Shown here in pieces: positions 35,583 to 50,525 of a DNA stretch of 64,000 nt. Position numbers and translations under genes: made by a program. The stretch covers positions 9,402 through 73,401 of the forward strand of contig CACZEL010000004.1 in NCBI GenBank assembly GCA_902780235.1, written 5' to 3'. Position 1 is the stretch's first letter; each line of letters begins with the position of its first letter. The stretch comes from an uncultured Bacteroidales bacterium (GTDB taxonomy: Bacteria; Bacteroidota; Bacteroidia; Bacteroidales; Paludibacteraceae). Under the pieces are notes generated by a model, which was not told where the DNA came from, made no database searches, and saw only the letters and a list, made by a program, of their open reading frames with translations.

Positions 35583-37166
35583 ATGAGTCGAATTCTGTGG
35601 GTTGACGACGAAGTGGATTTGTTGCAACCGTATATCATTTATCTGAAAAATAAGGGGTACGAGGTCGTTACCGCTTCTAACGGCGAGGATGCGCTTTATT
35701 TAGTCGAAAGTCAAAAGACCGCTTCGCTCAAAGACAAAAGCCATTTTGATATCGTATTCCTTGATGAGAATATGCCGGGAATGAGCGGATTGGAGACGCT
35801 GCAGGAGATCAAGAGGGTTCATCCTGAGTTGCCCGTGGTGATGATCACCAAGTCCGAAGAGGAGCATATCATGGAGCAGGCGATCGGTGAGAAAATAGCC
35901 GATTACCTCATTAAACCGGTGAATCCCAGCCAGATACTGCTGTGTTTGAAGAAGCATATTCATCAGCAGGAGATTGTGACCGAACAGGTGCAGCAGAACT
36001 ACCGTCAGGAATGGAGCGACATCTCCTATATGATCGATACGGCCTCGACGATCGAAGAGTGGCAAGCGATCGAGCGTACGCTGAGCAAATGGGATCTGGA
36101 GTTAGAGAACTCGCCTATGCGTTCGCTCATCGAAGATCAACGCACGCAAGCCAATGCGGCGTTTGCCAAGTGGGTGGCACGAAACTACGAGGATATAGTC
36201 GAAAGAAAAAAGACCGCTTCGCTCAAAGATGAAAGCCTTGTCATGTCGCAGGACGTGATGAAACATGCCGTATTTCCATTGCTGGACAAGGGGGAGAAGG
36301 TGCTGCTATGCGTGATTGATAATTTCCGTTATGACCAATGGAAGACCATCCAACCGCTTATCAGTGAGTTCTACACGATTCGTCATGAAGAGCAATATAC
36401 CTCGATTTTGCCGACGGCCACGCAGTACGCGCGCAATGCCATTTTCTCAGGTTTGCTACCGCTGCAGATCAAGGAGATGTATCCGCAATATTGGGTAGAA
36501 GAAGGGGACGAAGAGACCAAGAACCAATACGAGAAAGAGTTGGTTCAGACCCTGCTCGATCGGTATCGCAGGCGGGAGAGTTTCAACTATTGGAAGATCA
36601 ACGAGAGTGATTTCTGCGAGCGTGTGATCGGGCAACTCAAAGGCGTTCAGGCGCCGCTGAACATCGTGGTGCTGAACTTTATTGATATGCTGAGCCATTC
36701 GCGGACGGAGAGCAAGATGATGCGAGAGTTGGCGAACGATGAAGCCGCGTATAGAAGCTTGACTCTCAGTTGGTTCCGGCATTCGCCGACGTATGAGTTA
36801 CTGCGTCGCGCGGCCGAGTTGGGATTCACGCTCGTGCTGACGACCGACCATGGTACGACACGCGTGAAGAACGCCGTACAGATCATCGCCGATAAGAATA
36901 CAAACACCAATATCCGATACAAAGTAGGCAAAGCGCTGAACTGCAATTCGAAGAACGTGTTCTTCATCGAGCAACCCAAGCGGGTGGGTCTACCCTGCCC
37001 GAACGTGAGCAGCAGTTATGCCTTCTGCGCCGGCAGCGATTTCTTCGCGTACCCGAATCAATTTAATTATTACGCGCAATATTACCGCAACACGTTCCAA
37101 CACGGCGGTATTTCGCTGGAGGAGATGATAATTCCTTTGGTGACTTTGGAGCCAAAGTCACGTTAA
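35583..37166 (+). CDS. porX: PorX-type response regulator (CheY receiver plus PglZ/alkaline-phosphatase-like domain)
   Basis: MSRILWVDDE..., ..FLDENMPGMSGLE.., ..ADYLIKPV.., and a C-terminal ..TDHGT.. PglZ-like region. Confidence 0.85.
   Translation: MSRILWVDDEVDLLQPYIIYLKNKGYEVVTASNGEDALYLVESQKTASLKDKSHFDIVFLDENMPGMSGLETLQEIKRVHPELPVVMITKSEEEHIMEQAIGEKIADYLIKPVNPSQILLCLKKHIHQQEIVTEQVQQNYRQEWSDISYMIDTASTIEEWQAIERTLSKWDLELENSPMRSLIEDQRTQANAAFAKWVARNYEDIVERKKTASLKDESLVMSQDVMKHAVFPLLDKGEKVLLCVIDNFRYDQWKTIQPLISEFYTIRHEEQYTSILPTATQYARNAIFSGLLPLQIKEMYPQYWVEEGDEETKNQYEKELVQTLLDRYRRRESFNYWKINESDFCERVIGQLKGVQAPLNIVVLNFIDMLSHSRTESKMMRELANDEAAYRSLTLSWFRHSPTYELLRRAAELGFTLVLTTDHGTTRVKNAVQIIADKNTNTNIRYKVGKALNCNSKNVFFIEQPKRVGLPCPNVSSSYAFCAGSDFFAYPNQFNYYAQYYRNTFQHGGISLEEMIIPLVTLEPKSR
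35702..35742. repeat. 41-nt in-frame insertion in porX, copy 1
   Basis: AGTCGAAAGTCAAAAGACCGCTTCGCTCAAAGACAAAAGCC encodes ..ESQKTASLKDKSH.. . Confidence 0.9.
36197..36237. repeat. 41-nt in-frame insertion in porX, copy 2
   Basis: AGTCGAAAGAAAAAAGACCGCTTCGCTCAAAGATGAAAGCC encodes ..ERKKTASLKDESL.. . Confidence 0.9.
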
Positions 37167-37226: not shown

Positions 37227-38030
37227 ATGTTCGATTTTATTCTTATAGCGATCAGTGTCCTGACGTGGAATACGGCGCGGATGGATTTTAAGCACAAGCC
37301 GGCAGAGAACGCTGTGCTGCAGTACCTGCTGACGCAGGATGCGGATGTGGTATGTCTGCAGGAGGTAGATGTGTATAAGGACGGGAAGTACCTGACTTTG
37401 CCGGACGTGAAACAATGTATGGGGCAGAAATATCCGTACTCGTATCTGGATTTCTCGGTCTATAACAGCCGGCATCAGTACGGCACGATGGTGTGGTCCA
37501 AATATCCGCTGATCAACAAGCAGAGCATCCATTATCAATCGCGAGGCAATCTGTCCAATCGATGCGACATCGTAGTAGGCAAGGACACGTTCCGATTGAT
37601 CAACAATCATTTAGAGTCGTATAGTTTCACGCCGGAAGACATCGCGGAAGCCGAAAAACAACGAAATTACGAAGGTATCCTCTCGTCGCTCAAACGGCTC
37701 AAAGCCAAATGGGAGAAAGCGGTGCCCTTACGCAACGAGCAAGCTAAGATCGTTCGTACGGAGATTGAGGCAAGTCCTTATCCTGTGATCGTGGTGGGTG
37801 ATTTCAATGCGCCGGCATGGAGTTTTGCTTATCAGCATATATCTGCCGGGCTGCATGATGCATGGAACAGCGTACATCCGTGGCAGATGGGCTTTACCGT
37901 AGAGAAACGCGGTTTGGGACTTCGAATCGATTATATCCTTTGTTCGGATCCTTTAGTTCCTGCCAAATGCGCGGTCTCTTCTTCCCATAGTTCCGACCAC
38001 AAACCCGTCATCGCCACTTTGGCATGGTGA
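37227..38030 (+). CDS. Endonuclease/exonuclease/phosphatase (EEP) family protein
   Basis: ..LTWNTA.., ..DVVCLQEV.., ..VVGDFN.., ..SDHKPV.. . Confidence 0.8.
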   Translation: MFDFILIAISVLTWNTARMDFKHKPAENAVLQYLLTQDADVVCLQEVDVYKDGKYLTLPDVKQCMGQKYPYSYLDFSVYNSRHQYGTMVWSKYPLINKQSIHYQSRGNLSNRCDIVVGKDTFRLINNHLESYSFTPEDIAEAEKQRNYEGILSSLKRLKAKWEKAVPLRNEQAKIVRTEIEASPYPVIVVGDFNAPAWSFAYQHISAGLHDAWNSVHPWQMGFTVEKRGLGLRIDYILCSDPLVPAKCAVSSSHSSDHKPVIATLAW

Positions 38031-38032
38031 GG

Positions 38033-39961
38033 TCATTTGACCCAACGCATGCAGAGCGGCGGAATCGTGACCGCCATCAGCAGAACGATGGCCATGCCGA
38101 TGAGGGTGACCGCACCCAACGAATGCATGGCGGGATGCACTGCGAAGATAAGGATTCCAATACCAATCAACATAATTAGCGCCGACAAAAGGATCGATTG
38201 CCGATATTGCGGCAGGATCTGTTTGCCGGTTCTTCGTTCGTACAGAAGCCCTTCCACAATGAAGATGGTATAGTCGTCTCCTTGCCCGAAAATGAAGGTA
38301 GCAAGGATGATATTGACTATGTTAAACTGCAAGTGGCAGAGTTGCATGATAGCCAGTATCCAAACCCAACTCAGCGCCATCGGCAGGAAAGCGATGAGCG
38401 CCAAAGAGAAACGCTTGAACGCCAGCCACAGGAAGACGAAGACGATGAGCGAGCAGACGAGACCGATATAATCGAACTCCGCGCTGAGACGCTCGGCAAC
38501 CTTGGACATGAGGGAGCTGACGCTATTGGCTATTGGCTCTTGGCTATTAGCTCTTAGTTTCTCATAGAACGGTTCGAAAGCATCTGGACGAAAACCGACG
38601 GCTTCGGCTTCTTCGCGGATGAGGGATATGAGCTCTTGGCTGTTGGCTATTGCAGGTCTGACCTGGCTATTGGCTATGGGCTCTTGACTATTGGCTATTG
38701 GCTCGAAGAGGGCCATGTCGGCGCGTTGCTCGTCGGTCATGAAGTTGATATGCGTCAAGTTGGCATCAAACCGGTCTTGCGGACGAAACCAGAGATACAA
38801 TCCTCCGATAAGAGTAAGGGCGAGAATAGTCCATTGACTGACAGCTATTAGCTTTTGGCTCTTGGCTATTGGCTTGATTTTGATCTCTCTTATCGGCGTG
38901 GGTTCGGCGGACATGAGATGAGGCAGAACGAAGACGCAGAAGAGGATCGTTCCGACCAACATGGCAGCCGCAAAGATACCGAGGTGACGGAGGGCGGTGG
39001 CATGCATGGGGATAAGCGCCATGAACGCACCGACGGTCGTGATATTGCCTACGATAAGGGGTGAGAGTACTTCATCCAATGTTTGCCGCACGGAGGTCGT
39101 ATAGCGCTGATGTACAAGCAGATGCAGCGGGTAATTGACGGCGATACCGATCAGGACACTACCGATACCCAGCACAACGGCGGAGACGGTAGGCGTGACG
39201 ATATGTAAGACGGCCATACCCATTAACCAACCGACAGAAACCGACAAGAGGATGAGCCACCAGTCTCTGCGACGCGGGAAAGCGTAAGCAAGAAGCAAGA
39301 TGATCAATACCGCCGAAAGAGAGATACAAAGGAGCGTGTCGGTCTTGATTCGACGTGCGTTACCTACGGCAATCACAGGACCTCCCGTCCAGCGTATCAG
39401 CAGATTCGGATAAAGAAGCGCCACCTCGTTCGTGATAGCCGTCAGCGAATCCACGAGAGCCGCGTTTTGCTTGGTTTCCGTACTGCCATATGGAGAATCG
39501 ATATACGCAAAGCTTTTATTAGTTGAAAGTTGAAAGTTGAAAGTTGAAAGGTCGATTAAACCCAAGGGATCTTGTTGGATGAGGGGGGCTAAGGCTGAAC
39601 CGCCGGGCGTAGAGAGGATGGCTTTATCGCGTAAGAGGGCGGCATGAACTGCTTCGCGCGTAAGGAGAGAATCGGGAATGTTGAAAGGTGAAAGGTGAAA
39701 GGTGAAAGGTGAAAGGTCGGATAAGGTGAAAGTGGATAGTGGATAGTGGATAGTGGAAAGACGATCTTCGATCGTATAGAGGGCATCTTCCCGTTCGTAC
39801 TCCTCTTCACCCTCGATGATCAGCACGATGCGCGCAGCCGATTGCTGGGCTTGCAGGCTGTCGATGGCTTGGCGCTCCTCCGCAGTGATCGGCAGAAAAT
39901 CCATGATGTCTTCGTCGTAACGCAAAGTAGCAGCCAAAGCGATGAGGATGCTCATCACCAC
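38033..39961 (-). CDS. MMPL/RND-like exporter (ApeM-like)
   Basis: Two clusters of TM helices. The conserved N-terminus (..ILLHIYDFFASHRAWLWIG..) lies upstream of GTG 39961 with no canonical start codon. Five repeat insertions are present. Confidence 0.7.
   Translation of the reverse strand: MVMSILIALAATLRYDEDIMDFLPITAEERQAIDSLQAQQSAARIVLIIEGEEEYEREDALYTIEDRLSTIHYPLSTFTLSDLSPFTFHLSPFNIPDSLLTREAVHAALLRDKAILSTPGGSALAPLIQQDPLGLIDLSTFNFQLSTNKSFAYIDSPYGSTETKQNAALVDSLTAITNEVALLYPNLLIRWTGGPVIAVGNARRIKTDTLLCISLSAVLIILLLAYAFPRRRDWWLILLSVSVGWLMGMAVLHIVTPTVSAVVLGIGSVLIGIAVNYPLHLLVHQRYTTSVRQTLDEVLSPLIVGNITTVGAFMALIPMHATALRHLGIFAAAMLVGTILFCVFVLPHLMSAEPTPIREIKIKPIAKSQKLIAVSQWTILALTLIGGLYLWFRPQDRFDANLTHINFMTDEQRADMALFEPIANSQEPIANSQVRPAIANSQELISLIREEAEAVGFRPDAFEPFYEKLRANSQEPIANSVSSLMSKVAERLSAEFDYIGLVCSLIVFVFLWLAFKRFSLALIAFLPMALSWVWILAIMQLCHLQFNIVNIILATFIFGQGDDYTIFIVEGLLYERRTGKQILPQYRQSILLSALIMLIGIGILIFAVHPAMHSLGAVTLIGMAIVLLMAVTIPPLCMRWVK
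38522..38557. repeat. In-frame heptamer block in the exporter
   Basis: GCTATTGGCTATTGGCTCTTGGCTATTAGCTCTTAG encodes ..RANSQEPIANS.. . Confidence 0.9.
38631..38705. repeat. In-frame repeat-core-repeat block in the exporter
   Basis: ..CTCTTGGCTGTTGGCTATTGC-AGGTCTGACCT-GGCTATTGGCTATGGGCTCTTGACTATTGGCTATTGGCTC encodes EPIANSQEPIANSQVRPAIANSQEL. Confidence 0.9.
38841..38875. repeat. In-frame heptamer block in the exporter
   Basis: ACAGCTATTAGCTTTTGGCTCTTGGCTATTGGCTT encodes ..KPIAKSQKLIAVS.. . Confidence 0.85.
39521..39552. repeat. In-frame heptamer block in the exporter
   Basis: AGTTGAA x4 encodes ..LSTFNFQLSTN.. . Confidence 0.9.
39680..39760. repeat. In-frame compound block in the exporter
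   Basis: GAAAGGT x5 followed by GGATAGT x3 encodes ..STIHYPLSTFTLSDLSPFTFHLSPFN.. . Confidence 0.9.
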
Positions 39962-40024
39962 AGCGCACCCGATCCACAGCCAAGCGCGGTGGGAGGCAAA
40001 GAAATCGTAAATATGTAATAAGAT

Positions 40025-40056
40025 AGTTTTCAGTGGTCAGTATTCAGTTTTCAGCG
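40025..40056. repeat. Block at the ligase/exporter junction
   Basis: AGTTTTCAGTGGTCAGTATTCAGTTTTCAGCG. Confidence 0.8.
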
Positions 40057-41373
40057 TTCGTCTATAAACTTAACGGGTTTACGACTTTTGGCAGGGAAAT
40101 TGATCTGCTGGATCACATCGGCAGGTAGAATCTCGACGATAGGCGCCACACGCAGACGCGAACGGAAATGGTCCTTGAGTTGTTTGATCGCTTCCTCGGG
40201 TTGGATGCTCTTATCGCGCAGGCTGATACGAACGATGACTTCGTCGGTACCGGCATCTGAATGACGCACTACCACCACATAATTGCCGACAAAAAGGGTG
40301 TTATCCAGCACATCATTGATAGCCGGCGGATAGATGGTCGTTCCTTTCAGTTTGATCATGTTATGTTTCCGTCCGATGAGCGGCGTAAGACGATACGAGT
40401 TCCGTCCGCATGCGCAAGGATCGGTCACCTTAGCCGCTATGTCACCTGTACGGAAACGGATAAGCGGCATGCCTTCTACGCCAAGGGTTGTGATGACGAT
40501 CTCTCCGGGTTGACCGTCCGGAACGGGTTGGTCATCCTCTCCGATGATCTCCACGATGATCAGTTCGGGGTGTACATGCCCGCCGCACGCGTGCTCACAC
40601 TCAGAGAAAGTAGCGGACATCTCGGTGGACGAATACGTAGCGTAGAGTTCCACTTCCGGCCATTTGTCATGGATCCGCTGACCGAGCAGGTTGAGGTTAA
40701 ACTGCTGATCGCGCAGTCCTTCACCGATACCGATGATCTTACGAATCGACGAATGGCGATAATCGATGTTATGCTGCTCAGCGTACTCGATGAGACGCAG
40801 GATGAAAGATGGCACGCACATGATGGCCGTCGGGTGCAGACGTTGGATCGTGTCCCACTGCAGTTCGGGGATACCGTTCCCCACACGAATGATGCTCGCG
40901 CCCATGCGACGGATACCCATCCAGTAAGCGAGACCCGCCATGAAACGTTTGTCCATCGTGGTCATGAGTTGAAGGATATCGCCTTTGTGTAAGCCGGCGC
41001 AAGCAAAGGACTTATGCTCGTTGTACGCCAAACGCTGCAGGTCCGATTCGGTACAACCGAACAAGACGGGTTCGCCGAGCGTACCCGACGTAGTGATATA
41101 ATCAATGATCTCCTCTTTGGGCACGCACAAAAAATCATCGTTGAAACGTTGCAAGTCCGCTTTCTCGGTGAAAGGCAGTCGCTGCAAATCCTCGATGGTG
41201 CGTATGGACGCAGGATCGATATGCTGCTCGGCAAACATCCGCTGGTAATAGGGCGAGTGTTCGGCTACATACGCGATCTGTTTGGTTAACGCTACTTCTT
41301 GAAAGTCGCGAATACGTTCTATTGATTCAAATTCGATATCCATTGTAGAAATTCGTTTTTCCATTGTCTGCAT
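40051..41373 (-). CDS. Phenylacetate-CoA ligase / coenzyme F390 synthetase family adenylating enzyme (ApeH-like)
   Basis: ..ITTSGTLGEPV.. (AMP motif), ..YSSTE.., ..FRTGD.. . Confidence 0.8.
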   Translation of the reverse strand: MQTMEKRISTMDIEFESIERIRDFQEVALTKQIAYVAEHSPYYQRMFAEQHIDPASIRTIEDLQRLPFTEKADLQRFNDDFLCVPKEEIIDYITTSGTLGEPVLFGCTESDLQRLAYNEHKSFACAGLHKGDILQLMTTMDKRFMAGLAYWMGIRRMGASIIRVGNGIPELQWDTIQRLHPTAIMCVPSFILRLIEYAEQHNIDYRHSSIRKIIGIGEGLRDQQFNLNLLGQRIHDKWPEVELYATYSSTEMSATFSECEHACGGHVHPELIIVEIIGEDDQPVPDGQPGEIVITTLGVEGMPLIRFRTGDIAAKVTDPCACGRNSYRLTPLIGRKHNMIKLKGTTIYPPAINDVLDNTLFVGNYVVVVRHSDAGTDEVIVRISLRDKSIQPEEAIKQLKDHFRSRLRVAPIVEILPADVIQQINFPAKSRKPVKFIDER

Positions 41374-42143
41374 TCTTCTGTTCCTTTAACCTCTGACGCA
41401 CCGAATCCATGTCCGCCGGTTTGGTACTGGATATACACATGCGGTACGGCATGGGCAGTAAGCGCGGAGTCGAGTAACTCAGAGTTCTGATATTTGACGA
41501 TCGGGTCATCCTGACAGTTGATCAGGAAGACCGGCGGACAATCGTCCGGTATATGTTTCTCGATCGAGAGCGAGTCCCGTTTGGTGCGGTTAAACTGTCC
41601 CCACACGCCCAAAGCGCCACGACGCGAGCGATGATGGGTGTATTTCTTATGACTCATCGTCACGACCGGATAGACAGGGCAGAGGAAAGAGGGTTTGTAT
41701 TCCGTTCGGTTATGGGTATAGGACATCATCGTGAGATGCCCTCCGGCCGAGAAACCCATCACGCCTATGCGCGCGCGATCAATATGTAAGGAGTCGGCAA
41801 GGGTATAGACATACTGCAGTGCCTGCTCGACATCCGTAAGCATATTGGGGTATTTATTGCCCAAACCGATGACGCGGTAGCCGATACAGAAGGCGCTGAT
41901 GTTCGCCACCCGGTACTTGAGCACGAAAGCATGGATACCTTGACTGCTCAACCACTCCGCCACTTCGCGTCCCTCGTGCTCCATGTCATGCCAGCAGTAA
42001 CTTCCACCCGGACAGACGATGATCGCCATACCTGTGTTACGCGTACTATCGGCGGGATAATACGTAAGACGTTGGCTTTTGGCTGTTAGCTGTTGGCAAA
42101 CGGCTATTAGCAGGAGAAGTATCAGTATTCGAAATCTTCGCAT
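41319..42143 (-). CDS. Secreted alpha/beta hydrolase (esterase/lipase-like)
   Basis: Signal-like MRRFRILILLLLIAV and nucleophile elbow GFSAGGH. Start set to ATG 42143. Confidence 0.75.
   Translation of the reverse strand: MRRFRILILLLLIAVCQQLTAKSQRLTYYPADSTRNTGMAIIVCPGGSYCWHDMEHEGREVAEWLSSQGIHAFVLKYRVANISAFCIGYRVIGLGNKYPNMLTDVEQALQYVYTLADSLHIDRARIGVMGFSAGGHLTMMSYTHNRTEYKPSFLCPVYPVVTMSHKKYTHHRSRRGALGVWGQFNRTKRDSLSIEKHIPDDCPPVFLINCQDDPIVKYQNSELLDSALTAHAVPHVYIQYQTGGHGFGASEVKGTEECRQWKNEFLQWISNLNQ
42071..42111. repeat. In-frame heptamer block in the hydrolase signal-peptide region
   Basis: GTTGGCTTTTGGCTGTTAGCTGTTGGCAAACGGCTATTAGC encodes ..LLIAVCQQLTAKSQRL.. . Confidence 0.85.
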
Positions 42144-44638
42144 AGGGCTTGAACTGTTTGTTGAGCGGTCATGACGACACCGCATAGACCGTGTAAGAAA
42201 ATATTCTGTCCCGAGAGATAGAATCCCTTGAGGCGGGTTCGCACCGATCCGACGGATTCGGACATACCGAACATCGCTCCTTCGGGCGAGAGATAATCAT
42301 CCCGATAGGTGAGCGAAGTGGAGGAGAAGATATCCTCCATCTGCGTCCGTATATCGGGGTAAATTTGTTCGATGAGATCGAGGGTTTTCTGCTCCTGAGT
42401 ATGCTTGAACGCTTCGTAAGCCGCATAGTCGTTCTTGCGGTTCTCATGCCAAGGTGCCAACTCATTATAATCGAGCGGCATGACCGTTTCAATCGTGCGT
42501 GCAAACGACTGATTCTTGGTCGCACAAGGCGTCATGACGAGAAGGTTGTGCTTCGGCATAAAATGTGTGACCGGATCGTAAGGCAGCGTATCGGGTTTGA
42601 GCCGGATATAGGTCTTGAACGAACCCAAGGTCTCCGGAGTAGAAAGGATACGATTGCGGGCGATGGTGCGGAAAAGCGGCAAGTCAGTCAGCCTCAGCAG
42701 TTGCTTGGGATGAAGAGTCGAGACGACCGTATCGAATTGATGATTGATAATTGATGATTGATGATTTGTGATTTGGAATTTGTCTCCTTCTCCCTTTAAG
42801 CCACTCACCTTTTGACCTGTCAAGATACGACCACCGTGGCGGGTGATGAAGAGGGCGAGATCATCGGCAAGTTGTTGCGAACCGCCCACAAAACGGTATA
42901 TACCTTGGTCACATTGCGCCCATTCGGCTTCGCCGATGAGCGATGCCGGCGCATGATCAACCGAAGTAGGCACGATGTTTGCTTCGATACCTAACGACTG
43001 CAGCACGTGCGTCACTGCCCCTTCCGGATGCAGACCGGAGAGGATATGCATGCCGGTGAGCCAGGTCTCGCCGTTGCGTTCATACGAATAGAGTCCGCCG
43101 CCATAAACAGGCAGTTGTTCGAATAGCGTCACCAGATAACCTTTTTGCGCCAAGAGAGCACCGCAAAAAAGCCCGGAAACACCGGCACCAAGGATAGCTA
43201 CAGAACGTCGGTTGGAATGCAGCAAGGCATCATAATGCATCTCCAGCGATTTGGTTTGTTTCTTATAGTTACGCCCGAAAGAAGCATCGTCGCAGGAAAT
43301 AGGAGGCAGGATATGCATGACGACATGCGCCGGCTTGAGAGCAAACTGCTTGCGCGAGATATAATCGCAAAGGCCCTCCAAAAGCAGAGGTTGGATCGGC
43401 AGATGAAGCAACCGCGCATAATAGGCTGCCCCACGATGGAAACGCCCGATCTCACCGGTCGCGGTACGTGTACCTTCGGGGAAAAGCATGATCGAGTACC
43501 CTTCTTCGGTCACCCGACGGATGAGCGTCTCTTTGGCAGCATCGTCCATGGAGAGCGGGAAGCAGTCCAACTTACGCGCCACGACATGGAAAATCGGGTT
43601 GTACCAGATATAATCTTTAACCATGATCGCCACCTTCGCCGTCTGCGAGAGGATGAGCATGATGTCAATATGCGACTGATGGTTGGCGATAATCACCGAC
43701 GGTTGGGCTCCCAATTCGATTTGATAGGGATTATCGATCGTGTAATGCAAGCCGGCCAAGAGACGACAGTAATGGTTCGCCAGACGCTGCATACGTCGGC
43801 GATAGATGGCCCTACTCCGCGCGTTCTCACCATGGATAGCGAAATAGATCAGCGTATAAGGCGTGACGCCAAACAGCATCGTCAAACCGAAATAGGCGAA
43901 GCAAACGACCGTACGCCAATACATATTGATATAGCCGAACAGCAAGGCACCGAGGCACAGGAAGCAGTTGAGGATCGAGATACGCGTGAAATCCCGAACC
44001 GGCCGAAAATGACTGACCCGCTGCTCCTTAGGCGGATAATAGACCCGAATAGGAACCGGTATCAAAGGCACGTTATGCCATGCGGCGAAAACGAGCAGTT
44101 CCAGTTCCGCTTCGTACCGGCTGGTAAGCAGAGGCAGACCGTACAATTGATGCAAAGGATAGATACGCATGCCCGTCTGGGTGTCCGGCAGATTGATCGT
44201 CGTTTGCAAACGGAACCAGAAATTCGAGAACCGGTTGGCAAACTTACTCTTACCCGACATGTTCTCATCCGTAAACTGCCGGCTACCGACGATGATCGCT
44301 TCGCGATGCAGATCCAGCGCACGCAGCATGAGGGGTATATCTTCGGGATAATGCTGTCCGTCGGCATCGATGGTCAGGGCATGGGTAAAACCCATCTCGA
44401 GCGCTTTATAAAAACCCGAAACGAGTGCTTTGCCTTTGCCTTGGTTACGCGTATGAGAGACGATGGTGACCGGAAAATCAAGCGTACCTAACAAAGCCAA
44501 GGTATCGTCTGTGCAACCGTCATCCACGACGATGATATCGCGTACCTGCTGATGCACGCGACGAACGACGTCAAGGATCGTACCGGCGTTATTGAAGGTC
44601 GGTATCAGGACACATATATGTGACGATGAAGGACGCAT
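42122..44638 (-). CDS. Three-domain fusion: GT2 glycosyltransferase, LPLAT (PlsC-like) acyltransferase and FAD-dependent (CrtI-like) oxidoreductase
   Basis: N-terminus ICVLIPTFNNAG..VVDDGCTDDT..DADGQH. Middle ANHQSHIDI (HX4D) and FPEGTRT. C-terminus VAILGAGVSGLFCGALLAQKGYLVTLFEQ..YGGG (Rossmann). Confidence 0.8.
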   Translation of the reverse strand: MRPSSSHICVLIPTFNNAGTILDVVRRVHQQVRDIIVVDDGCTDDTLALLGTLDFPVTIVSHTRNQGKGKALVSGFYKALEMGFTHALTIDADGQHYPEDIPLMLRALDLHREAIIVGSRQFTDENMSGKSKFANRFSNFWFRLQTTINLPDTQTGMRIYPLHQLYGLPLLTSRYEAELELLVFAAWHNVPLIPVPIRVYYPPKEQRVSHFRPVRDFTRISILNCFLCLGALLFGYINMYWRTVVCFAYFGLTMLFGVTPYTLIYFAIHGENARSRAIYRRRMQRLANHYCRLLAGLHYTIDNPYQIELGAQPSVIIANHQSHIDIMLILSQTAKVAIMVKDYIWYNPIFHVVARKLDCFPLSMDDAAKETLIRRVTEEGYSIMLFPEGTRTATGEIGRFHRGAAYYARLLHLPIQPLLLEGLCDYISRKQFALKPAHVVMHILPPISCDDASFGRNYKKQTKSLEMHYDALLHSNRRSVAILGAGVSGLFCGALLAQKGYLVTLFEQLPVYGGGLYSYERNGETWLTGMHILSGLHPEGAVTHVLQSLGIEANIVPTSVDHAPASLIGEAEWAQCDQGIYRFVGGSQQLADDLALFITRHGGRILTGQKVSGLKGEGDKFQITNHQSSIINHQFDTVVSTLHPKQLLRLTDLPLFRTIARNRILSTPETLGSFKTYIRLKPDTLPYDPVTHFMPKHNLLVMTPCATKNQSFARTIETVMPLDYNELAPWHENRKNDYAAYEAFKHTQEQKTLDLIEQIYPDIRTQMEDIFSSTSLTYRDDYLSPEGAMFGMSESVGSVRTRLKGFYLSGQNIFLHGLCGVVMTAQQTVQALCEDFEY
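42736..42776. repeat. In-frame block in the oxidoreductase domain
   Basis: ATTGATGATTGATAATTGATGATTGATGATTTGTGATTTGG encodes ..FQITNHQSSIINHQF.. . Confidence 0.9.
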
Positions 44639-44960
44639 TTACAGAATTGAAAGTTGAAAGGTGAAAGTTGAAAGATTTATCCCGTTCTCCGTTTTCGATA
44701 CAAAGGGTTACTTCCATGTCCGGCGTGATCGGTTGACGGAATTTCAAGTTACGGATTGCGTTGAAGCAAACCGTACTCCCGACAAATACACCTGCCAATT
44801 CTTCGGCTATCTGCACAAGAACAGCACCGGGTACAACCGGATGACCGGGAAAATGACCGGCAAAAATAGGGTGCGAAGGATTGAAGCGAATGACAAAAGT
44901 GCTTTGCTCTTTCGACTTTTGACTTTCGACGATATCATATAAACTATTTAACAGTGACAT
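44589..44960 (-). CDS. FabZ/FabA-like hotdog dehydratase
   Basis: ..HPIFAGHFPGHPVVPGA.. . The C-terminus reads through the block at 44646-44675 and overlaps the next gene by 50 nt. Confidence 0.7.
   Translation of the reverse strand: MSLLNSLYDIVESQKSKEQSTFVIRFNPSHPIFAGHFPGHPVVPGAVLVQIAEELAGVFVGSTVCFNAIRNLKFRQPITPDMEVTLCIENGERDKSFNFHLSTFNSVNASFIVTYMCPDTDLQ
44646..44675. repeat. Heptamer block at the dehydratase/GT2 junction
   Basis: ATTGAAAGTTGAAAGGTGAAAGTTGAAAGA is translated as ..SFNFHLSTFN.. . Confidence 0.9.
44907..44930. repeat. In-frame block near the dehydratase N-terminus
   Basis: CTCTTTCGACTTTTGACTTTCGAC is the complement of the GTCGAAAGTCAAAAG seen in porX. It encodes ..VESQKSKEQ.. 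. Confidence 0.8.
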
Positions 44961-45354
44961 TCTTAAATTCAATAATCGTGGTATCTCCGTTTTTTTCTAT
45001 CATCTCCACGCGCTGAGCGGCATGGGTTTTATCGTCCATGGTAACATTCACCGAACGAAAGAGTTTTTGGGACTCCCGCTGCATCCGTTCATCCTGCGTA
45101 TTCTCACCTGCAATAGATGCCATGATCATGCGCAAGAGACGCTGTACCTGCGGATTGACATTCGATTGTTTACCGTCTATCTCCCACACCAACGCCTGCG
45201 GCGAAGTATATTCCCATCGCATGTACTCCGGCGCACGGTAAGAGAGGTGGCCGGTGGATACCTGCGGTTCATTCATCAACGCTACTTGCTTCGTTTGCAC
45301 GAAATCCGCTTCCAGCGAAACGATGAGCGACAATATGAGTCCCAAAATATTCAT
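44944..45354 (-). CDS. LolA-like lipoprotein-carrier fold protein (ApeL-like)
   Basis: ..ADFVQTKQVALMNEP..GHLSY.AP..MRWEY.. . Short N-terminus. Confidence 0.6.
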   Translation of the reverse strand: MNILGLILSLIVSLEADFVQTKQVALMNEPQVSTGHLSYRAPEYMRWEYTSPQALVWEIDGKQSNVNPQVQRLLRMIMASIAGENTQDERMQRESQKLFRSVNVTMDDKTHAAQRVEMIEKNGDTTIIEFKNVTVK

Positions 45355-45364
45355 TTTATCATTA

Positions 45365-45715
45365 TTAATTGACCACCAAATAGCACCCCGCCATGATAAA
45401 GAGGATACCTAACCATTGTGTCCACGCGATATGCTCGTGGAAGACGAACATGGCTGCTATCATACCGAACACATACGCAAGGCTACTGAGCGGATAAGCC
45501 TGCGAGAACGACCAGTGCTTGAGGATGTACATCCACAGGATGCCGGCTGCCGTGAACGATATGCCGCAGGCGAGCCACCACCAGTTCGTCACTTGACTCC
45601 ACACGAACGCCCATGACCAGGAAACCGCACCCATCGCTTTGAGGGCGAGTTTCATGAAGAGCTGTCCTGCGCAGAGCAGCATGCTTTGTATGAGGGCTAA
45701 GAGAATCAGTTTCAT
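45365..45715 (-). CDS. Small 4-TM membrane protein (EamA/SMR-like)
   Basis: Four hydrophobic helices. ATGA overlap with the upstream KS gene. Confidence 0.55.
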   Translation of the reverse strand: MKLILLALIQSMLLCAGQLFMKLALKAMGAVSWSWAFVWSQVTNWWWLACGISFTAAGILWMYILKHWSFSQAYPLSSLAYVFGMIAAMFVFHEHIAWTQWLGILFIMAGCYLVVN

Positions 45716-47439
45716 AGCGTTATAATCGTTGCTTTAGCGATATTTTGGGTTTTCTCACCGATATGTTGCATTACCTTATCCCATGCTTCCACCTCTTCGT
45801 CAAACTCCAGCACGAGGGCGTTACGGATCAGACCTAATGCCATCTGCGATCGGATATCGGTCATCGCACACGCGAGCGAATCCTTGCCCTGCGAATAGGT
45901 GGCATTATAGCCGTGATTGCCGGTGAGGATCGCAATAAGCGAAGCGATCGTGTTATGCGTCGATTGGATGAAAGGCGTCGGTTTGAGTTGTTGCTCCTCC
46001 GAATCGATCATGTCCTGCAAGAAACGCATGGATTGCAACATACAACCGTACTGCGTTGCGCAAACGATGGCGTCAGGTTGGTCGATATGCGCCTCCTGCA
46101 TCGCTTTCTTCGCTGCCGCTACGATACGTCGGGTCTGCGGCGTCATACGACGAGCCTCAGCACCGTTGACAAAAGCACTCACCTCGGTATCATCCGAGAT
46201 CTCGATTTCTCGACATTTCGACATCTCGACCAAAGAAGCTACGCTCAGGTCTTTTCCTTCGGCACTGATGACTAACGAGGACTCGTTTCCACCAAAACCG
46301 AACGCATTGCAGAGCACATGATGCAGGGCTTGATGGCGCGTATGGGTAAGGGGTTGAATAAGCCCTTCGGCGGTCTGCGACCAATGCAGGTTAGCCGGAA
46401 TAAAACCATGCTGCATCGCCAGCACACATATCGCCGCTTCGAGTCCGCCGCTGGCCGAAGTGGTATGACCGGTGAGGGCTTTCGTACTGCTGACTGCAGG
46501 CATATGATCACCGAACAAACGGATCAGTGCGGCCGATTCCGAGAGGTCGTTATTAGGGGTCGCTGTACCGTGGGCATTGATATAATCGATGTCTTCGGGC
46601 TGCAGTTGCGCCATCTCCAATGCACCCTTCATCGCGCGATAGGCACCTTCGCCGTCGGCAGAAGAAGCGGTCTGATGGAAAGCATCGCAGGTATTGGCAT
46701 AGCCGTTGATATAACCTAAGATCTTCGCTCCACGGGCAAGGGCCTCCGCCTCCGGTTCGATCAGCAGATACCCTGCTCCTTCACCCAAGTTCAGTCCGTT
46801 CCGGTTCGCATCAAACGGTCGGCAAGGCTGATGATCAAGGATCATAAGCGTATTAAAACCGTTGAGATGGAATTTGCTCAGACTCTCTGCTCCACCCACC
46901 AAAGCTGCTTTCGCTTGACCCGTACGCAACAGGTTCGCTCCTAACATGATTGCATTGAGCGCTGAGGAACAGGCGGTGGAAGGCGTTGCGACGAAGCTGT
47001 TGGCTGTTGGCTCTTGGCTATTGGCTGAAAGGTGACGGACAATAGCGTTCGTCGATTCACCGGCTTCATGCAGATGAATATTCTCCGTGGCAAGACCTTG
47101 CTGGTAGTCCTGCCAATGCTGCTCGGTCAAGTCCATACCGCCGACGGTAGTGCCGCTGATAAATGCTATTTGCTGTTGGCTATTAGCCATTAGCATCGCT
47201 TCACGAGCGGCCATGAGACCTAAGAGGGACGTACGCGGCATAGGTTCATCGACACCGAGCATCTGTTTGAGTTCGGCGTCGGTATAGGGCACTTCCCCCA
47301 CCGGCAAGTCGGTATGAACGCTTTGCAACATACGCATCGCGCCGATACCGGAACGCTCATTCCGTAAAGCCTGCAGGGTCTCGGTGGAGTTGCATCCGAT
47401 GGCGCTGACCATTCCTATGCCTGTGATCGCAATACGCAT
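45712..47439 (-). CDS. Beta-ketoacyl-ACP synthase with a C-terminal extension (KS plus CLF-like tail)
   Basis: ..PSTACSSAL.. (active Cys), ..NAHGTATPNND.., ..GHTTSASG.., ..FGFGGN.. . Confidence 0.85.
   Translation of the reverse strand: MRIAITGIGMVSAIGCNSTETLQALRNERSGIGAMRMLQSVHTDLPVGEVPYTDAELKQMLGVDEPMPRTSLLGLMAAREAMLMANSQQQIAFISGTTVGGMDLTEQHWQDYQQGLATENIHLHEAGESTNAIVRHLSANSQEPTANSFVATPSTACSSALNAIMLGANLLRTGQAKAALVGGAESLSKFHLNGFNTLMILDHQPCRPFDANRNGLNLGEGAGYLLIEPEAEALARGAKILGYINGYANTCDAFHQTASSADGEGAYRAMKGALEMAQLQPEDIDYINAHGTATPNNDLSESAALIRLFGDHMPAVSSTKALTGHTTSASGGLEAAICVLAMQHGFIPANLHWSQTAEGLIQPLTHTRHQALHHVLCNAFGFGGNESSLVISAEGKDLSVASLVEMSKCREIEISDDTEVSAFVNGAEARRMTPQTRRIVAAAKKAMQEAHIDQPDAIVCATQYGCMLQSMRFLQDMIDSEEQQLKPTPFIQSTHNTIASLIAILTGNHGYNATYSQGKDSLACAMTDIRSQMALGLIRNALVLEFDEEVEAWDKVMQHIGEKTQNIAKATIITL
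46996..47035. repeat. In-frame heptamer block in the KS gene
   Basis: GCTGTTGGCTGTTGGCTCTTGGCTATTGGCTGAAAGGTGA encodes ..HLSANSQEPTANS.. . Confidence 0.9.
47165..47194. repeat. In-frame heptamer block in the KS gene
   Basis: GCTATTTGCTGTTGGCTATTAGCCATTAGC encodes ..LMANSQQQIA.. . Confidence 0.9.
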
Positions 47440-47696
47440 TATTTGGTGCGGTTAGCTTGGATATATTCCGCCATCGTGCGAACGGATTGGAAAATCGCTT
47501 TACCGGCTTTCGGGTCGGCTAATTTGATTCCGTACTCACGATCCATCAGCATGATCAATTCCAAGGCATCGATCGAGTCCAAACCAAGGCCTTCTCCGAA
47601 CAGAGGGGCATCGGTATCGATGTCTGCAGGCGTCATATCTTCAAAATTAAGGGCGTCAATGATTTGGGATTTCAGTTGTTCAATCAATTGTTCCAT
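47439..47696 (-). CDS. Acyl carrier protein
   Basis: ..LGLDSIDALELI.. phosphopantetheine attachment site. Confidence 0.85.
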   Translation of the reverse strand: MEQLIEQLKSQIIDALNFEDMTPADIDTDAPLFGEGLGLDSIDALELIMLMDREYGIKLADPKAGKAIFQSVRTMAEYIQANRTK

Positions 47697-48235
47697 ATAA
47701 TCTGTAATTTAGCATAAAAATTATTCGGTTCCGTACACTCGCACCAACCGGCGAGGATGGTTTGCGGGTTTGAAGGTTTGAGGTTGTTTGACATCGTTGA
47801 AAGAAGGATCTGTTCTAATTGCTCGGGGGCGTCGAGGATATAGAACGAGGTCTCTCCCTGGATATGATGGCGGATGGCGATCTCGCCGGTCACGATATTC
47901 GGCAAGGTATAGACGAATAACGCCGGGCTGGGATAATAGTTGCCATCCGAGATAGTTGCCAAATAGTCAGTATCGTTCTTGATACTGGCGCTGCGGTTTG
48001 CCAATATGATGGCTGTTGGCTCTTGGCTCTTGGCTCTTGGCTCTTTCAGCAGTATCTCTGCTGCAATAAAACCGAGACGCGAGAGAGTGTCCATCTTGAA
48101 GAATTTCGGATAGTCACCGGCGTAACGACGATAGAGTTCGACAAGCATCTTCTCGCCTGTCGTCTCCACGGCTATCGGTTGTCCGTTCAGCACTACCGAT
48201 GTCGGTCTGATCTCTATTTCGCTAACAACTTTCAA
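47684..48235 (-). CDS. KS-N-terminal-like accessory protein of aryl-polyene clusters
   Basis: Size and position are typical. No catalytic Cys motif was seen. Confidence 0.5.
   Translation of the reverse strand: MKVVSEIEIRPTSVVLNGQPIAVETTGEKMLVELYRRYAGDYPKFFKMDTLSRLGFIAAEILLKEPRAKSQEPTAIILANRSASIKNDTDYLATISDGNYYPSPALFVYTLPNIVTGEIAIRHHIQGETSFYILDAPEQLEQILLSTMSNNLKPSNPQTILAGWCECTEPNNFYAKLQIIWNN
48011..48044. repeat. In-frame heptamer block
   Basis: GGCTGTTGGCTCTTGGCTCTTGGCTCTTGGCTCT encodes ..PRAKSQEPTA.. . Confidence 0.9.
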
Positions 48236-48267
48236 ACTATCTCAAACTTTCAAACTATCTCAAACTC
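48228..48267. repeat. Junction block (TCAAAC family)
   Basis: ACTTTCAAACTATCTCAAACTTTCAAACTATCTCAAACTC. It spans the stop of one gene and the start of the next. Confidence 0.9.
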
Positions 48268-49252
48268 TTATTCGTATCGCTGCATTCACGCCTCCGAAGC
48301 CGGAAAGCATCTTGATACAATTTACCATTTTGTTATTTACCATTTTCTCATTGGCCTGCATGGCACAGAGGATCGTCTCCAGTACGCCGGCAGCCCCCAT
48401 CGTATGCCCGAAGAAAGGCTTGAGGGCCGAGATGGGCGTGTCTTGCAGTCCTGCCCGCTCCAATGCGATACGCTCCATATCGTCGTTATAAAGCGTTGCT
48501 GTACCGTGTACACCCACCAAATCGATGTCAGCAGGTGACAAGCCTTCCATCACATCCATCAGGCAGCGGTACGCACCTTCTCCCGTGCGACTCGGCGCAG
48601 AGATATGGTTCGCGTCGTTATGGATACTGCCGGCTTCCAAGGTCCAGAGGGGCTGTTGGCTATTAGCCATTGGCAGTTGGCTATAAACGATCGTGGCAGC
48701 TGCTTCGCCGAGGTTCAGTCCTTTGCGGTCGGGGCTGAAAGGCAGACAGGGTTCGGGCGACAAGGCCTTGAACGCCTGAAAACCGCTGACGATGAATTTC
48801 GTTTGAATATCGCATCCTACCACCACGGCATGTTGGTACATCCCGGCTTCCAAGAGACGCATCGCCGTTATCTGCGCACAGACACCGGAGGTGCAGGCAT
48901 TACTGACCACGATCGGTGGGTTCGGATTGCCGAAATGGTGCGCGATCATTTTTGCCGGCGTGATCAAGTCCAAGTTGTCGCCCTTGGTGGTCGAGAGAAT
49001 GAAGATCGTATCCTTCGAATTGGTGATTGGTGATTGGTTATTGGTGATTGCTTCTTCCACGCTTCGGATGCAAAGCGGCACAAAAGCCTGCGGCGTATCG
49101 AACAGCGAGGCGCAGAACGGTTCTACCGAATCGAACCGATCGGTATGGATCTTCAATCCGCTGCGACCTGCTTGCACCGCTTCGTAGTTCGCTTGCGAAC
49201 CATCACCAAGGGGCGAGATAATACTATGTCCGACGCAATAAACCATTTTCAC
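48260..49252 (-). CDS. Beta-ketoacyl synthase family protein
   Basis: ..VVSNACTSGV.. (Cys), ..GVHGTATLYND.., ..GHTMGAAG.. . The start may be ATG 49246. Confidence 0.8.
   Translation of the reverse strand: MKMVYCVGHSIISPLGDGSQANYEAVQAGRSGLKIHTDRFDSVEPFCASLFDTPQAFVPLCIRSVEEAITNNQSPITNSKDTIFILSTTKGDNLDLITPAKMIAHHFGNPNPPIVVSNACTSGVCAQITAMRLLEAGMYQHAVVVGCDIQTKFIVSGFQAFKALSPEPCLPFSPDRKGLNLGEAAATIVYSQLPMANSQQPLWTLEAGSIHNDANHISAPSRTGEGAYRCLMDVMEGLSPADIDLVGVHGTATLYNDDMERIALERAGLQDTPISALKPFFGHTMGAAGVLETILCAMQANEKMVNNKMVNCIKMLSGFGGVNAAIRIRV
48320..48352. repeat. In-frame block (CATTTAC family)
   Basis: ATTTACCATTTTGTTATTTACCATTTTCTCATT encodes ..NEKMVNNKMVN.. . Confidence 0.9.
48651..48684. repeat. 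In-frame heptamer block
   Basis: GGCTGTTGGCTATTAGCCATTGGCAGTTGGCTAT encodes ..LPMANSQQP.. . Confidence 0.9.
49019..49051. repeat. In-frame heptamer block
   Basis: ATTGGTGATTGGTGATTGGTTATTGGTGATTGC encodes ..ITNNQSPITNS.. . Confidence 0.9.
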
Positions 49253-49273
49253 ATTTGCGCATTTTCACATTTA
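49244..49273. repeat. Junction block
   Basis: CATTTTCACATTTGCGCATTTTCACATTTA. It supplies both the start and the upstream stop. Confidence 0.85.
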
Positions 49274-49666
49274 ATCGATAATCGCCAGTTTGAGGGTAGT
49301 GGTTGCAATCATCTCATCCGCCACCTTCGTCGTACACTCGATGAGGCTGATATTCATCACTTCCTGGACCAACACCACTTCGGTAGTCAGCGTCTCACCT
49401 ATCTTCGGCAAACGGTTTGCCTGCATCGTCTTCACGGCGCCGATGAAGCCTATCTTGTTTCCTCCGCAATAACCGGCCCGTACGGCACAGGTCTGCGCCG
49501 CATTCTCCATCAGTCCGGCTAAGGACAGATGACCGTTGGTCACCAAGGGGCAGCCTTCTCGGATCGTGAACGCACTGACCGCACGTTCGTTATTAACGCT
49601 CACCACTTCGTCAATGAAGACGAACGGCGGACGTTGGGGGATATATGTCTCAACTCCAGAAATCAT
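49271..49666 (-). CDS. Hotdog-fold dehydratase (ApeI/ApeP-like)
   Basis: ..PQRPPFVFIDEV.., about 130 aa. Confidence 0.65.
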   Translation of the reverse strand: MISGVETYIPQRPPFVFIDEVVSVNNERAVSAFTIREGCPLVTNGHLSLAGLMENAAQTCAVRAGYCGGNKIGFIGAVKTMQANRLPKIGETLTTEVVLVQEVMNISLIECTTKVADEMIATTTLKLAIID

Positions 49667-50525
49667 AAAAATTAAACCATTGGTAAGGGTACTGCATCAC
49701 GATCCGCTCCATGCTCTGCGCATAGCGGTTCGCCAGATCTTGTACCTGTTCTTTGCGGGATAGCGCGCTGTTGATATCCAACTGCTCACTGTAAACGCGA
49801 TAGGTCCTGTGGTCTTCTTTGATCACAAAAATGAGCAGTACCGGTTGTTTCATCGTCACGCAGATCTGGAACACGCCGGCCGGGAACTTAGCCTCCGCCC
49901 CCATAAAGGTGCATGTGAGGGTCGCATCATTGGTACAACGGTCACCGGCTACGGTGAGCACATCGCCCTGCTGCAGCACCTCGCTGATGCGGTAGATATG
50001 ACTCATGTCGTCCGGCATGACGGTGATCAAACCAATGTTATTGCGTTCCAGCACTTTCGCGCGATGCACCAGCACGACCGGTGACTCTCCGCCATAAGCA
50101 AGGATATGCATTCTCTTGTCCGGGGTAGGCAGGAAATAACCTGCCATCTCGGCATTGCCGACGTGGGAGAAGAGCATGATAAAACCTTGGGGATCATTCA
50201 CCCGACCGTAGTACAACTCGCGGTTTTCCACTTGTACATCAAACGGTTGACCGGCATAGACAGCGAATCGATCAATGATCGCCTTGCCGAAATGATAAAA
50301 AGAGCGATAGACATCCAAAGACGCCTGGATACGAGTGCGTCCGCGACGACGATGGAAGAGATACGATCCGTGGCGTTCGGTGCGACGAACGATGATATAC
50401 CAGATCAGCCAAAGGTGCATCAATCCATACGCCACACGGATATCCGTATGTCGTATAAGACTCACCAAAGCGCTCTGCATACCATGCGTACCGCCCGTCT
50501 TTCCGTTCCACGCCTGTTTAGCCAT
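49650..50525 (-). CDS. LpxL/HtrB-like lipid acyltransferase
   Basis: N-terminal TM segment and ..FSHVGNAEM.. (H..N.E acyltransferase motif). Confidence 0.7.
   Translation of the reverse strand: MAKQAWNGKTGGTHGMQSALVSLIRHTDIRVAYGLMHLWLIWYIIVRRTERHGSYLFHRRRGRTRIQASLDVYRSFYHFGKAIIDRFAVYAGQPFDVQVENRELYYGRVNDPQGFIMLFSHVGNAEMAGYFLPTPDKRMHILAYGGESPVVLVHRAKVLERNNIGLITVMPDDMSHIYRISEVLQQGDVLTVAGDRCTNDATLTCTFMGAEAKFPAGVFQICVTMKQPVLLIFVIKEDHRTYRVYSEQLDINSALSRKEQVQDLANRYAQSMERIVMQYPYQWFNFYDFWS

Follow-up and report, generated by a model that had tools for sequence, protein, structure and literature searches.

The closest known system, as judged by analogy, is that of the small dispersed repeats (SDR) of the Nostocaceae. 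SDR1-8 were reportedly described by Elhai et al. in 2008 (Genome Res 18:1484) as very small (tens of nt, with a unit of 21-27 nt), protein-less dispersed repeats, several of them with a small hairpin, and they are said to be embedded in tandem heptameric repeats and to be present or absent at orthologous loci. The Rickettsia palindromic elements (RPE), reportedly described by Ogata et al. in 2000, are said to be 100-150 bp long, strongly palindromic and confined to Rickettsia. Heptanucleotide simple-sequence repeats, named LSSR (long simple sequence repeats), were reportedly treated by Mrazek et al. in 2007, with the STRR (short tandemly repeated repetitive sequences) as their cyanobacterial counterpart. 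In this study, a stretch of 64,000 nucleotides from an uncultured Bacteroidales bacterium of the Paludibacteraceae (assembly GCA_902780235.1, contig CACZEL010000004.1, positions 9,402 to 73,401 of the forward strand), called the window throughout, was analysed for a 41-nt element that stands twice, in frame, in the gene porX. Results showed that each porX copy is one member of a family of very small repeats dispersed in Bacteroidota, and no published description of the porX-type element was found in the literature searched.

Repeats similar to SDR were not found outside the Nostocaceae, according to PMC5861425; the 2008 SDR paper is cited there and in PMC3116915, and RPE are mentioned in reviews (PMC10969869, PMC3184786). 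Repetitive extragenic palindromes (REP), their bacterial interspersed mosaic elements (BIME) and the REP doublets called REPINs are short GC hairpins of 20-40 nt with a GTAG or CGTC head; they are extragenic and are moved by REP-associated tyrosine transposases (RAYT), the genes of which are flanked by REP elements (PMC3116915, PMC3733652). Heptamer repeats of the unit TAACTGA occur, mainly between genes, in Beggiatoaceae, Cyanobacteria and a few Bacteroidetes including Paludibacter (MacGregor, PMC4679880).

The host gene was confirmed as porX, as a preliminary description of the window made from the sequence alone had proposed. Comparison with the PDB gave full-length alignments to 7pv7, 7pvk and 8ted (E=6e-190 to 4e-160), with PorX of Porphyromonas gingivalis at E=6e-190 (7pv7) and PorX of Flavobacterium johnsoniae at E=4e-160 (8ted). 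Pfam showed PF00072 (Response_reg) and PF08665 (PglZ), and the protein has at its N-terminus a CheY-like receiver that bears the phospho-acceptor Asp, then a three-helix bundle and, at its C-terminus, a PglZ/alkaline-phosphatase-like domain. An exact-protein look-up with the window PorX gave no match, and relatives were used instead; those named below carry our handles (L for loci and contigs, P for proteins).

Copy 1 (35702-35742, AGTCGAAAGTCAAAAGACCGCTTCGCTCAAAGACAAAAGCC) and copy 2 (36197-36237, AGTCGAAAGAAAAAAGACCGCTTCGCTCAAAGATGAAAGCC) were identical at 37 of 41 positions and exactly 495 nt (165 codons) apart, and an exact 22-mer was common to both (Table 1); the positions, the identity of about 90 percent and the spacing had all been given correctly in the preliminary description. 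Both copies are read in the same frame of the gene, with the peptides LVESQKTASLKDKSH (copy 1) and IVERKKTASLKDESL (copy 2). The 20-nt core had 2 exact matches in the window, against 0.00 expected in window shuffles even with 3 mismatches, and by our own estimate a pair of 41-mers with at least 37 matching positions would be expected about 1e-6 times in 64 kb. Both copies were also present in independent ENA, NCBI and JGI assemblies (proteins P0001-P0010 and JGI contig L137, the latter with 98% DNA identity). Because of the shuffled expectation of 0.00 and the presence of the same gene with both copies in independent assemblies, the porX pair is real and no assembly artefact.

Alignment to 7pv7 showed copy 1 as a net gain of 9 residues between the equivalents of P. 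gingivalis PorX Asn49 and Asn50, in the alpha2-beta3 loop of the receiver and 9 residues ahead of the phospho-acceptor Asp58, and copy 2 as a net gain of 6 residues between the equivalents of Asp209 and Thr210, at the junction of the helix bundle and the PglZ domain. The receiver of P. gingivalis PorX extends from Pro7 to Ile128, the helix bundle from Ile129 to Arg211 and the PglZ domain from Pro212 to Lys518, with Asp58 as the phospho-acceptor (PMC9757075). The two inserts thus lie in the receiver and in the linker or PglZ region, where they had been placed before. In an AlphaFold model, which was only moderate (mean pLDDT, the predicted local distance difference test, of 65; shallow alignment) and served for loop placement alone, both inserts (residues 47-51 and 212-222) were coil with pLDDT <50. 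PorX of P. gingivalis and F. johnsoniae has no insert, and neither have most of 120 orthologues at 86-100% identity, so that both copies are insertions relative to the characterised proteins and also to most close orthologues. What the inserts add to PorX is probably a hydrophilic extension of a loop, translated and near-neutral, rather than a module with a function in the regulator.

For dispersal beyond porX, the 18-mer GACCGCTTCGCTCAAAGA was scanned in species-representative genomes and gave at least 132 matches at at least 118 loci. Among the matches listed, 107 had element-type flanks and 25 were classed as chance-like, with about 17 chance matches expected by our arithmetic for the complete scan. 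The element-type copies listed were mostly in metagenome-assembled genomes (MAGs) of rumen Paludibacteraceae or 'Bacteroidales', in Crocinitomicaceae, in Fluviicola and in other Flavobacteriales; none of the 107 was a porX copy, one stood just downstream of porX (L026), and none of the 118 loci listed was cyanobacterial. Several copies were found on different contigs of one MAG, with at least 4-6 exact cores per MAG. With regard to genes, 36 of the 107 copies listed were internal to long open reading frames (ORFs), 20 were near ORF ends and 51 were apparently intergenic. The ORF-internal copies among the matches listed were read as KTASLK (12), SLSEAV (9), DRFAQR (7), RPLRSK (5) and FERSGL (3), in both orientations; five of the six frames were used, and the frame that contains TGA had 0 copies. 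Hosts identified by Pfam were DapB, RimO/MiaB, Tex, DXS, MurF-Alr, LeuRS, BirA and flavodoxin. The exact 18-nt core with CAAGACA, AGAAGAC or AAAGAGN heptamer flanks was also observed in L009, L090 and L027, from MAGs labelled Verrucomicrobiales, Akkermansiaceae and Competibacteraceae, by cross-phylum spread or on mis-binned contigs; these non-Bacteroidota labels may be due to mis-binning. At two loci (L036:3907 and L063:4002) the 42-nt form of the element stood about 10-15 nt upstream of opposite-strand start codons, a placement that recalls the TAACTGA heptamer repeats close to start codons (PMC4679880).

The full 41-mer pattern AGTCGAAAGNNAAAAGACCGCTTCGCTCAAAGANNAAAGCC, scanned in JGI metagenomes, gave 16 matches, all of them inside ORFs (16/16) and all in the frame [LI]VE[SR]xKTASLK[DE]xS (16/16). 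The hosts were an RlmI-like methyltransferase (on 6 contigs that represent at least 4 diverged lineages), a KsgA-like gene (3), DapB, the NAD-dependent DNA ligase LigA, a HypB-like GTPase, a glycosyltransferase-like gene and porX. Copy 1 was identical at 41 of 41 positions to the copies in RlmI-like genes (L012, L130-L143) and at 40 of 41 to the DapB copy, against 37 of 41 to copy 2. The LigA insert was a clean gap of 14 residues (42 nt) against Escherichia coli LigA (LVEREKTASLKDKS); the gap in the KsgA-like alignment was untidy, and the DapB alignment to the PDB was uninformative, the insert loop being variable in all homologues. The LigA of JGI contig Ga0310696_10001291 (L142) has a second heptamer-type insert, LAVSDQQSAVS, which is also missing from E. 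coli LigA. Copies cluster locally: besides the pair in porX, L131 has three within 3 kb, and three other loci (L088, L067 and L093) have two in one gene. The three 42-nt cassettes of L131 (positions 994, 3157 and 3985; also L048 and L085) lie in three neighbouring genes, DapB and two others, in an arrangement kept in at least 3 genomes that forms a second case of local clustering like that in porX.

The copy-paste idea of the preliminary description turned on two questions, whether the element is unique to porX and whether PorX orthologues in general have residues at both positions. It survived on both, with the element present at many sites outside porX and most PorX orthologues lacking the residues.

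The consensus of 113 copies among the matches listed was AAAGACA AAAGACC GCTTCGCTC AAAGACA AAAGAC, that is, a 9-nt GC module (GCTTCGCTC) within an A-rich heptamer array (AAAGTCG/AAAGACN). Paludibacteraceae showed a form with a fixed length of 42 nt, TAGTCGAAAG-NN-AAAAGACC-GCTTCGCTC-AAAGA-NN-AAAGCC, the termini of which stand at fixed offsets, TAGT[CA]GAAAG 16 nt ahead of the core and AAAGC[CA] 2 nt past it. Tandem forms with a 23-nt period were seen at six loci. Elsewhere the same flanks (AGAYC...TCAAAGA) surround perfect hairpins that are GC-clamped, vary in sequence and have covarying stems, for example GCGACGAAGTCGC, GCAGGCTTTGCCTGC, GCAGCGGAGCTGC and GCAGCCAAGTTTGGCTGC; in 27 cases the stem was of at least 4. 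Relatives with long-stem hairpins fold with z-scores of -1.4 and -2.9; the 42-nt element had no significant fold (z-scores -0.6, +0.4 and -0.9), and the porX copies form no stable hairpin.

No terminal inverted repeats were found, the termini TAGTCGAAAG and AAAGCC not being complementary, and 28 flank pairs showed neither a target-site duplication nor a target consensus. Rfam gave two tRNAs only in the window and no match on 17 element-rich loci. The IMG/VR scan gave 3 matches without the element flanks, which were judged to be chance, and hence no phage copies. Clustering of the genes within 2 kb of 107 copies, on 8-kb genome pieces, returned syntenic orthologues and generic ABC ATPases only, with no recurrent transposase-like or RAYT-like neighbour.

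Among the 120 PorX orthologues, length ranged from 509 to 540 residues, and nearly all of this variation was at the two insert positions. The site-1 alleles were none, SNIQSPISNQ, VESQKSKVERP and NDERLAINGP, and the site-2 alleles were none, TDRFTDRVQNTDQVTRP, TEHRAQSTDQITRP and QPIANSQ; these alleles are translated 7-nt repeats, as confirmed in the DNA of eight relatives. Insertions and deletions are concentrated at both porX sites, where close relatives have heptamer arrays of other kinds. Copy 1 was confined to the window's clade (P0001-P0011, L136, L137), and copy 2, the KTASLKD allele, was found in several porX lineages (L119, L120, L122) with an identical 21-nt core; L121 has the site-1 copy and no site-2 copy. 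Site 1 in L119, L125 and L145 reads TAGTCGAAAGTCAAAAGTCGAAAG.., the left 16 nt of which are also those of copy 1, and in L119 it is TAGTCGAAAGTCAAAAGTCGAAAGTCGAAAGACC. Site 2 in L124 (TAGTCGAAAGTCGAAAGTCGAAAGACGAAAGC) consists purely of an (AAGTCGA)3 array, its outer flanks being those of the core-bearing alleles, site 2 in L121 and L144 is an AGTTGAA-type array, and site 1 in L144 is a TCAGNNN-type array. Between identical outer flanks L124 has TCGAAAGTCG at site 2 and L119 has AAGAAAGACCGCTTCGCTC, so a simple 9-nt insertion of the GC module was rejected, the two alleles differing by a replaced patch and not by a simple indel.

The porX genes of the window, L121 and L144 were near-identical except at precisely these two sites, where patches of about 85 nt differ, a pattern that suggests allelic patch replacement through recombination between lineages at both hot spots. 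In the comparison of L121:10001-10740 and L144:125-830 with window positions 35583-36300, the first 111 nt were 100% identical, and the patches had diverged at synonymous sites too.

The opposition of copy-paste to slippage in the preliminary description needs correction, the element being no free-standing 41-nt unit: the GC module sits in heptamer arrays of slippage type, and both porX sites already hold such arrays in relatives. Slippage accounts neither for the GC module nor for the same 41-mer turning up at loci that are otherwise unrelated.

The 21-nt core AAAGACCGCTTCGCTCAAAGA is the longest run identical in all four site-2 lineages (the window, L119, L120 and L122) in the whole gene, and no other such run in porX reaches 12. 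These four lineages are about 80% identical, with 54-60% identity at third-codon positions; 28% of the conserved degenerate codons are identical in all four, which for six consecutive codons gives P of about 5e-4. Recent exchange of the whole site-2 segment was rejected as the cause of the core identity, given that the immediate flanks differ between lineages. The RlmI orthologues, with 15-20% diverged flanking DNA, all keep the exact 41-mer, in a set that was found with the pattern itself and is partly circular.

Set beside the known systems, the element resembles SDR in being a very short unit at many unrelated loci (107 element-type 18-mer copies among the matches listed, with a 23-nt tandem period) and in being likewise embedded in tandem heptamers. 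It differs in belonging to Bacteroidota and not to Cyanobacteria, the likeness being one of description; a large share of its copies is in frame and translated in conserved housekeeping genes, and it has a fixed 42-nt composite subfamily. As in RPE, there is in-frame, translated insertion in unrelated genes, at permissive sites of essential proteins; unlike RPE, the copies are 23-42 nt long, those in coding sequence are not stable palindromes, and the base is a heptamer array. Short GC hairpins, conserved flanks, covarying stems, many dispersed copies and the lack of a target duplication recall REP, but 36 of the 107 copies listed are inside long ORFs and the flanks are AGACC and TCAAAGA with no GTAG head. 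The element lacks the terminal inverted repeats and target-site duplication of a MITE (miniature inverted-repeat transposable element), and with 2 copies in 64 kb, both in porX, it does not have the density of DNA uptake or uptake signal sequences (DUS/USS), which is about one per kb genome-wide. The heptamer simple-sequence repeats correspond to the flanks only, with tandem 7-nt units that vary in number and type between relatives; about half of the window's arrays are translated in genes, and the porX element adds a conserved, non-repetitive core of a kind that slippage cannot make.

The reading preferred here, to which we give a probability of roughly 0.55, is that short patches are copied between heptamer arrays under the guidance of homology and are then filtered by selection for stop-free, frame-preserving loop inserts. 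A short patch would be copied non-reciprocally, by short-tract gene conversion or by template switching in replication. The donor would be some other member of the family, with the older copy at a distance of 495 nt as one possibility, and the target would be a heptamer array already resident at the site and built of the same type of unit (AGTCGAA/AAAGACN), the units of which would act as homology arms. Selection would retain those copies that keep the frame, bring no stop codon and fall in a tolerant surface loop. We infer the patch-copying step from comparative anatomy, in which core-bearing and array-only alleles differ by a replaced patch and the hallmarks of a transposon are absent. Copy 2, which is close and older, may have been the donor of copy 1; the genome-wide pool is at least as likely a source, because copy 1 equals the RlmI-like copies elsewhere and has 4 differences from copy 2. 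The two porX copies need not be copies of one another.

Several points weigh against patch copying. No conversion event was caught directly and no donor was pinned down, and the copy numbers per genome given above are lower bounds. Passive conversion alone does not obviously explain exact runs of 18-21 nt across Bacteroidota orders, and perhaps the same exactness in the Verrucomicrobiota and Gammaproteobacteria MAGs (L009, L090, L027). Nor does it explain the covarying hairpins in the same-flank relatives, which point to a structure-dependent function or enzyme. The conservation in RlmI orthologues is partly an artefact of searching with the pattern, and the site-1 copy has changed at 4 of 41 positions in L121 and at 2 of 41 in L136. 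This decay is at about the neutral rate, so homogenisation would be episodic at best. Given the covarying hairpins and the identity of the core across orders, a dedicated structure-specific enzyme or a function in cis may be involved instead.

A tentative extension, to which we give less weight than to patch copying, is that a sequence- or structure-specific system, acting on heptamer arrays in several Bacteroidota orders and possibly in other phyla, actively writes or maintains a conserved cassette of about 21-42 nt. If this were true, these bacteria would have a natural means of adding a defined translatable peptide unit to essential proteins at their surface loops, and the arrays may be footprints that the system leaves or landing pads for it.

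It is unlikely that the origin was strictly intragenic, with an older site-2 copy copied once into site 1 and the likeness to other copies incidental, which is the narrow form of the idea in the preliminary description. Such an event would suit the greater age of site 2, which is occupied in lineages without a site-1 copy (L119, L120, L122), the short distance between the sites (495 nt) and the local clustering of the family. In its left 16 nt copy 1 is the same as the resident array of relatives, which would leave a copied tract of about 25 nt that departs from the ancestral site-2 sequence at 1-2 positions. However, copy 1 is closer to the RlmI-gene copies (41/41) and the DapB copy (40/41) than to copy 2 (37/41), L121 has a site-1 copy without any site-2 copy, and the family plainly spreads between unrelated genes.

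Similarly doubtful is a tiny non-autonomous mobile element served by a dedicated enzyme in trans, for which the candidates would be a reverse transcriptase and an HUH/Y1 transposase (REP-RAYT or IS200/IS605 kind). Such an enzyme would act on the GC-clamped hairpin, recognised together with its AGACC...TCAAAGA flanks, and insert it without target duplication. The fixed length and termini of the composite at unrelated loci, the clean 42-nt insertion in LigA and the exact cores across orders would fit such an enzyme, as would the 27 same-flank hairpins of different sequence and perfect complementarity, the folding of the long-stem forms (z-scores -1.4 and -2.9) and the lack of a target duplication, which HUH enzymes would also give. 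Nevertheless, no recurrent transposase-like gene lay within 2 kb of the 107 copies, the porX copies themselves have no stable hairpin, the site-2 alleles show a replaced patch in a shared array and not a discrete insertion, and IMG/VR gave no match beyond chance.

Lower still is the likelihood that the core is a selected cis-element (for example a binding site in DNA or RNA, or a piece of a terminator) or that VESxKTASLKDxS is a selected short linear motif. The core is read in five frames and in both orientations with no single conserved peptide, although the 42-nt subfamily is biased to one frame (16/16), and the hosts are unrelated cytoplasmic enzymes. A cis-element would account for the conservation of the site-2 core beyond synonymous expectation (P about 5e-4) and across orders, for the hairpin covariation in relatives, for the many copies at gene ends or in intergenic palindromes and, as a terminator, for the hairpin followed by GGTCTTTTGTCTTT on the opposite strand; yet site-1 copies decay, many close orthologues have no insert, the density is low (2 copies in 64 kb) and Rfam gave no match. 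Independent origin in situ, by slippage and point mutation at each site, is effectively refuted in spite of the slippage-prone heptamer arrays at both sites, since identical 22-41-mers including the non-repetitive GC module occur at dozens of unrelated loci, and an assembly artefact is as improbable, with the same sequence in ENA, NCBI and JGI assemblies.

If the family is as it appears, it is among the smallest repeats known that colonise protein-coding genes, among them genes for essential enzymes (LigA, KsgA, DapB, DXS, LeuRS and PorX), in abundant rumen and freshwater Bacteroidota. To our knowledge, it is the smallest in-frame repeat of its kind. It would connect bacterial heptamer repeats with very small dispersed repeats and extend the latter from cyanobacteria to another phylum. 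The fast variation in loop length, by which near-identical porX genes differ only at these sites, bears on orthologue alignment, strain typing and MAG annotation. A core more conserved than its host gene suggests a copying process or cis-function worth seeking, and the structurally solved PorX, with the insert sites at Asn49/Asn50 and Asp209/Thr210, offers a tractable test case.

Table 1. Coordinates in the window of porX, its two element copies and other repeat features.
Feature	Position	Strand	Sequence	Remarks
porX orthologue	35583..37166	+		527 aa, intact; host gene with receiver domain, three-helix bundle and PglZ domain
Copy 1, 42-nt composite	35701..35742	+	TAGTCGAAAGTCAAAAGACCGCTTCGCTCAAAGACAAAAGCC	translated (L)VESQKTASLKDKS
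GC module of copy 1, 9 nt	35721..35729	+	GCTTCGCTC	within the shared 22-mer 35713-35734
Copy 2, 42-nt composite	36196..36237	+	TAGTCGAAAGAAAAAAGACCGCTTCGCTCAAAGATGAAAGCC	translated (I)VERKKTASLKDES
GC module of copy 2, 9 nt	36216..36224	+	GCTTCGCTC	within the shared 22-mer 36208-36229
Core-less heptamer array	44909..44930	-	GTCGAAAGTCAAAAGTCGAAAG	GTCGAAA GTCAAAA GTCGAAA G, three units
10-nt unit palindromes	58416-58530, 62532-62660, 63419-63543, 63929-64000, 48227-48266			between genes
Eight-copy family	851, 4860, 6221, 13722, 14662, 19671, 30395, 60741

Tandem Repeats Finder showed 43 period-7 arrays of many unit types in the window, including AGCCAAT, AGTTGAA, GATTAGA and ATTGATG, about half of them inside genes that Pfam supports as real. 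The genes that bear arrays include those for PriA, an MMPL-like protein, ketoacyl synthases, an O-methyltransferase, an Rce1-like protease and a FabA-like dehydratase. As read from the sequence, a pure heptamer array gives the same 7-residue periodic peptide in all three frames; therefore any stop-free unit can be inserted in frame if the total length is a multiple of three. Examples of array locations are 15201-15322, 19591-19652, 38522-39757, 46996-47027 and 61360-61721, and translated arrays include ANSQEPIANSQ, FNFQLSTN and ITNHQSSIINHQ.

A related copy had been assigned in the preliminary description to a FabZ-like gene. The gene (44589-44972, minus strand) is FabA-like, and the array near its N-terminus, read in frame as VESQKSKEQ, has the heptamer part of the element without the GACCGCTTCGCTC core (Table 1). 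A scan of the window for other hairpins between identical heptamers gave one clear case and one doubtful case. The clear case (38653-38665) is a perfect 13-nt hairpin, CAGGTCTGACCTG, with an identical GCTATTG unit on either side, translated as VRPA in the MMPL-like ORF (38033-39961, minus strand), a gene with seven arrays; its layout is that of a hairpin in a heptamer array as in the porX element, with unrelated sequence.

The MMPL-like gene belongs to a minus-strand cluster at about 38000-57000 that also includes ketoacyl synthases, a FabA/ApeI-like dehydratase, a GT2-acyltransferase-oxidoreductase fusion, an O-methyltransferase and an alpha/beta hydrolase, most of them with in-frame heptamer arrays; the cluster looks like an aryl-polyene or flexirubin-type lipid pathway. 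Arrays of a 10-nt unit (TGTTTGAGAT, about 7 copies) directly adjoin their inverted partner (TCAAACCT...) and form long intergenic palindromes. The eight-copy intergenic family consists of 43-nt copies with the sequence ..GCAAAAGTACTGCTTTTTT..GATATATGCAAG; its other strand, TTG...TAnnTTTGC, appears to resemble the Bacteroidota promoter consensus.

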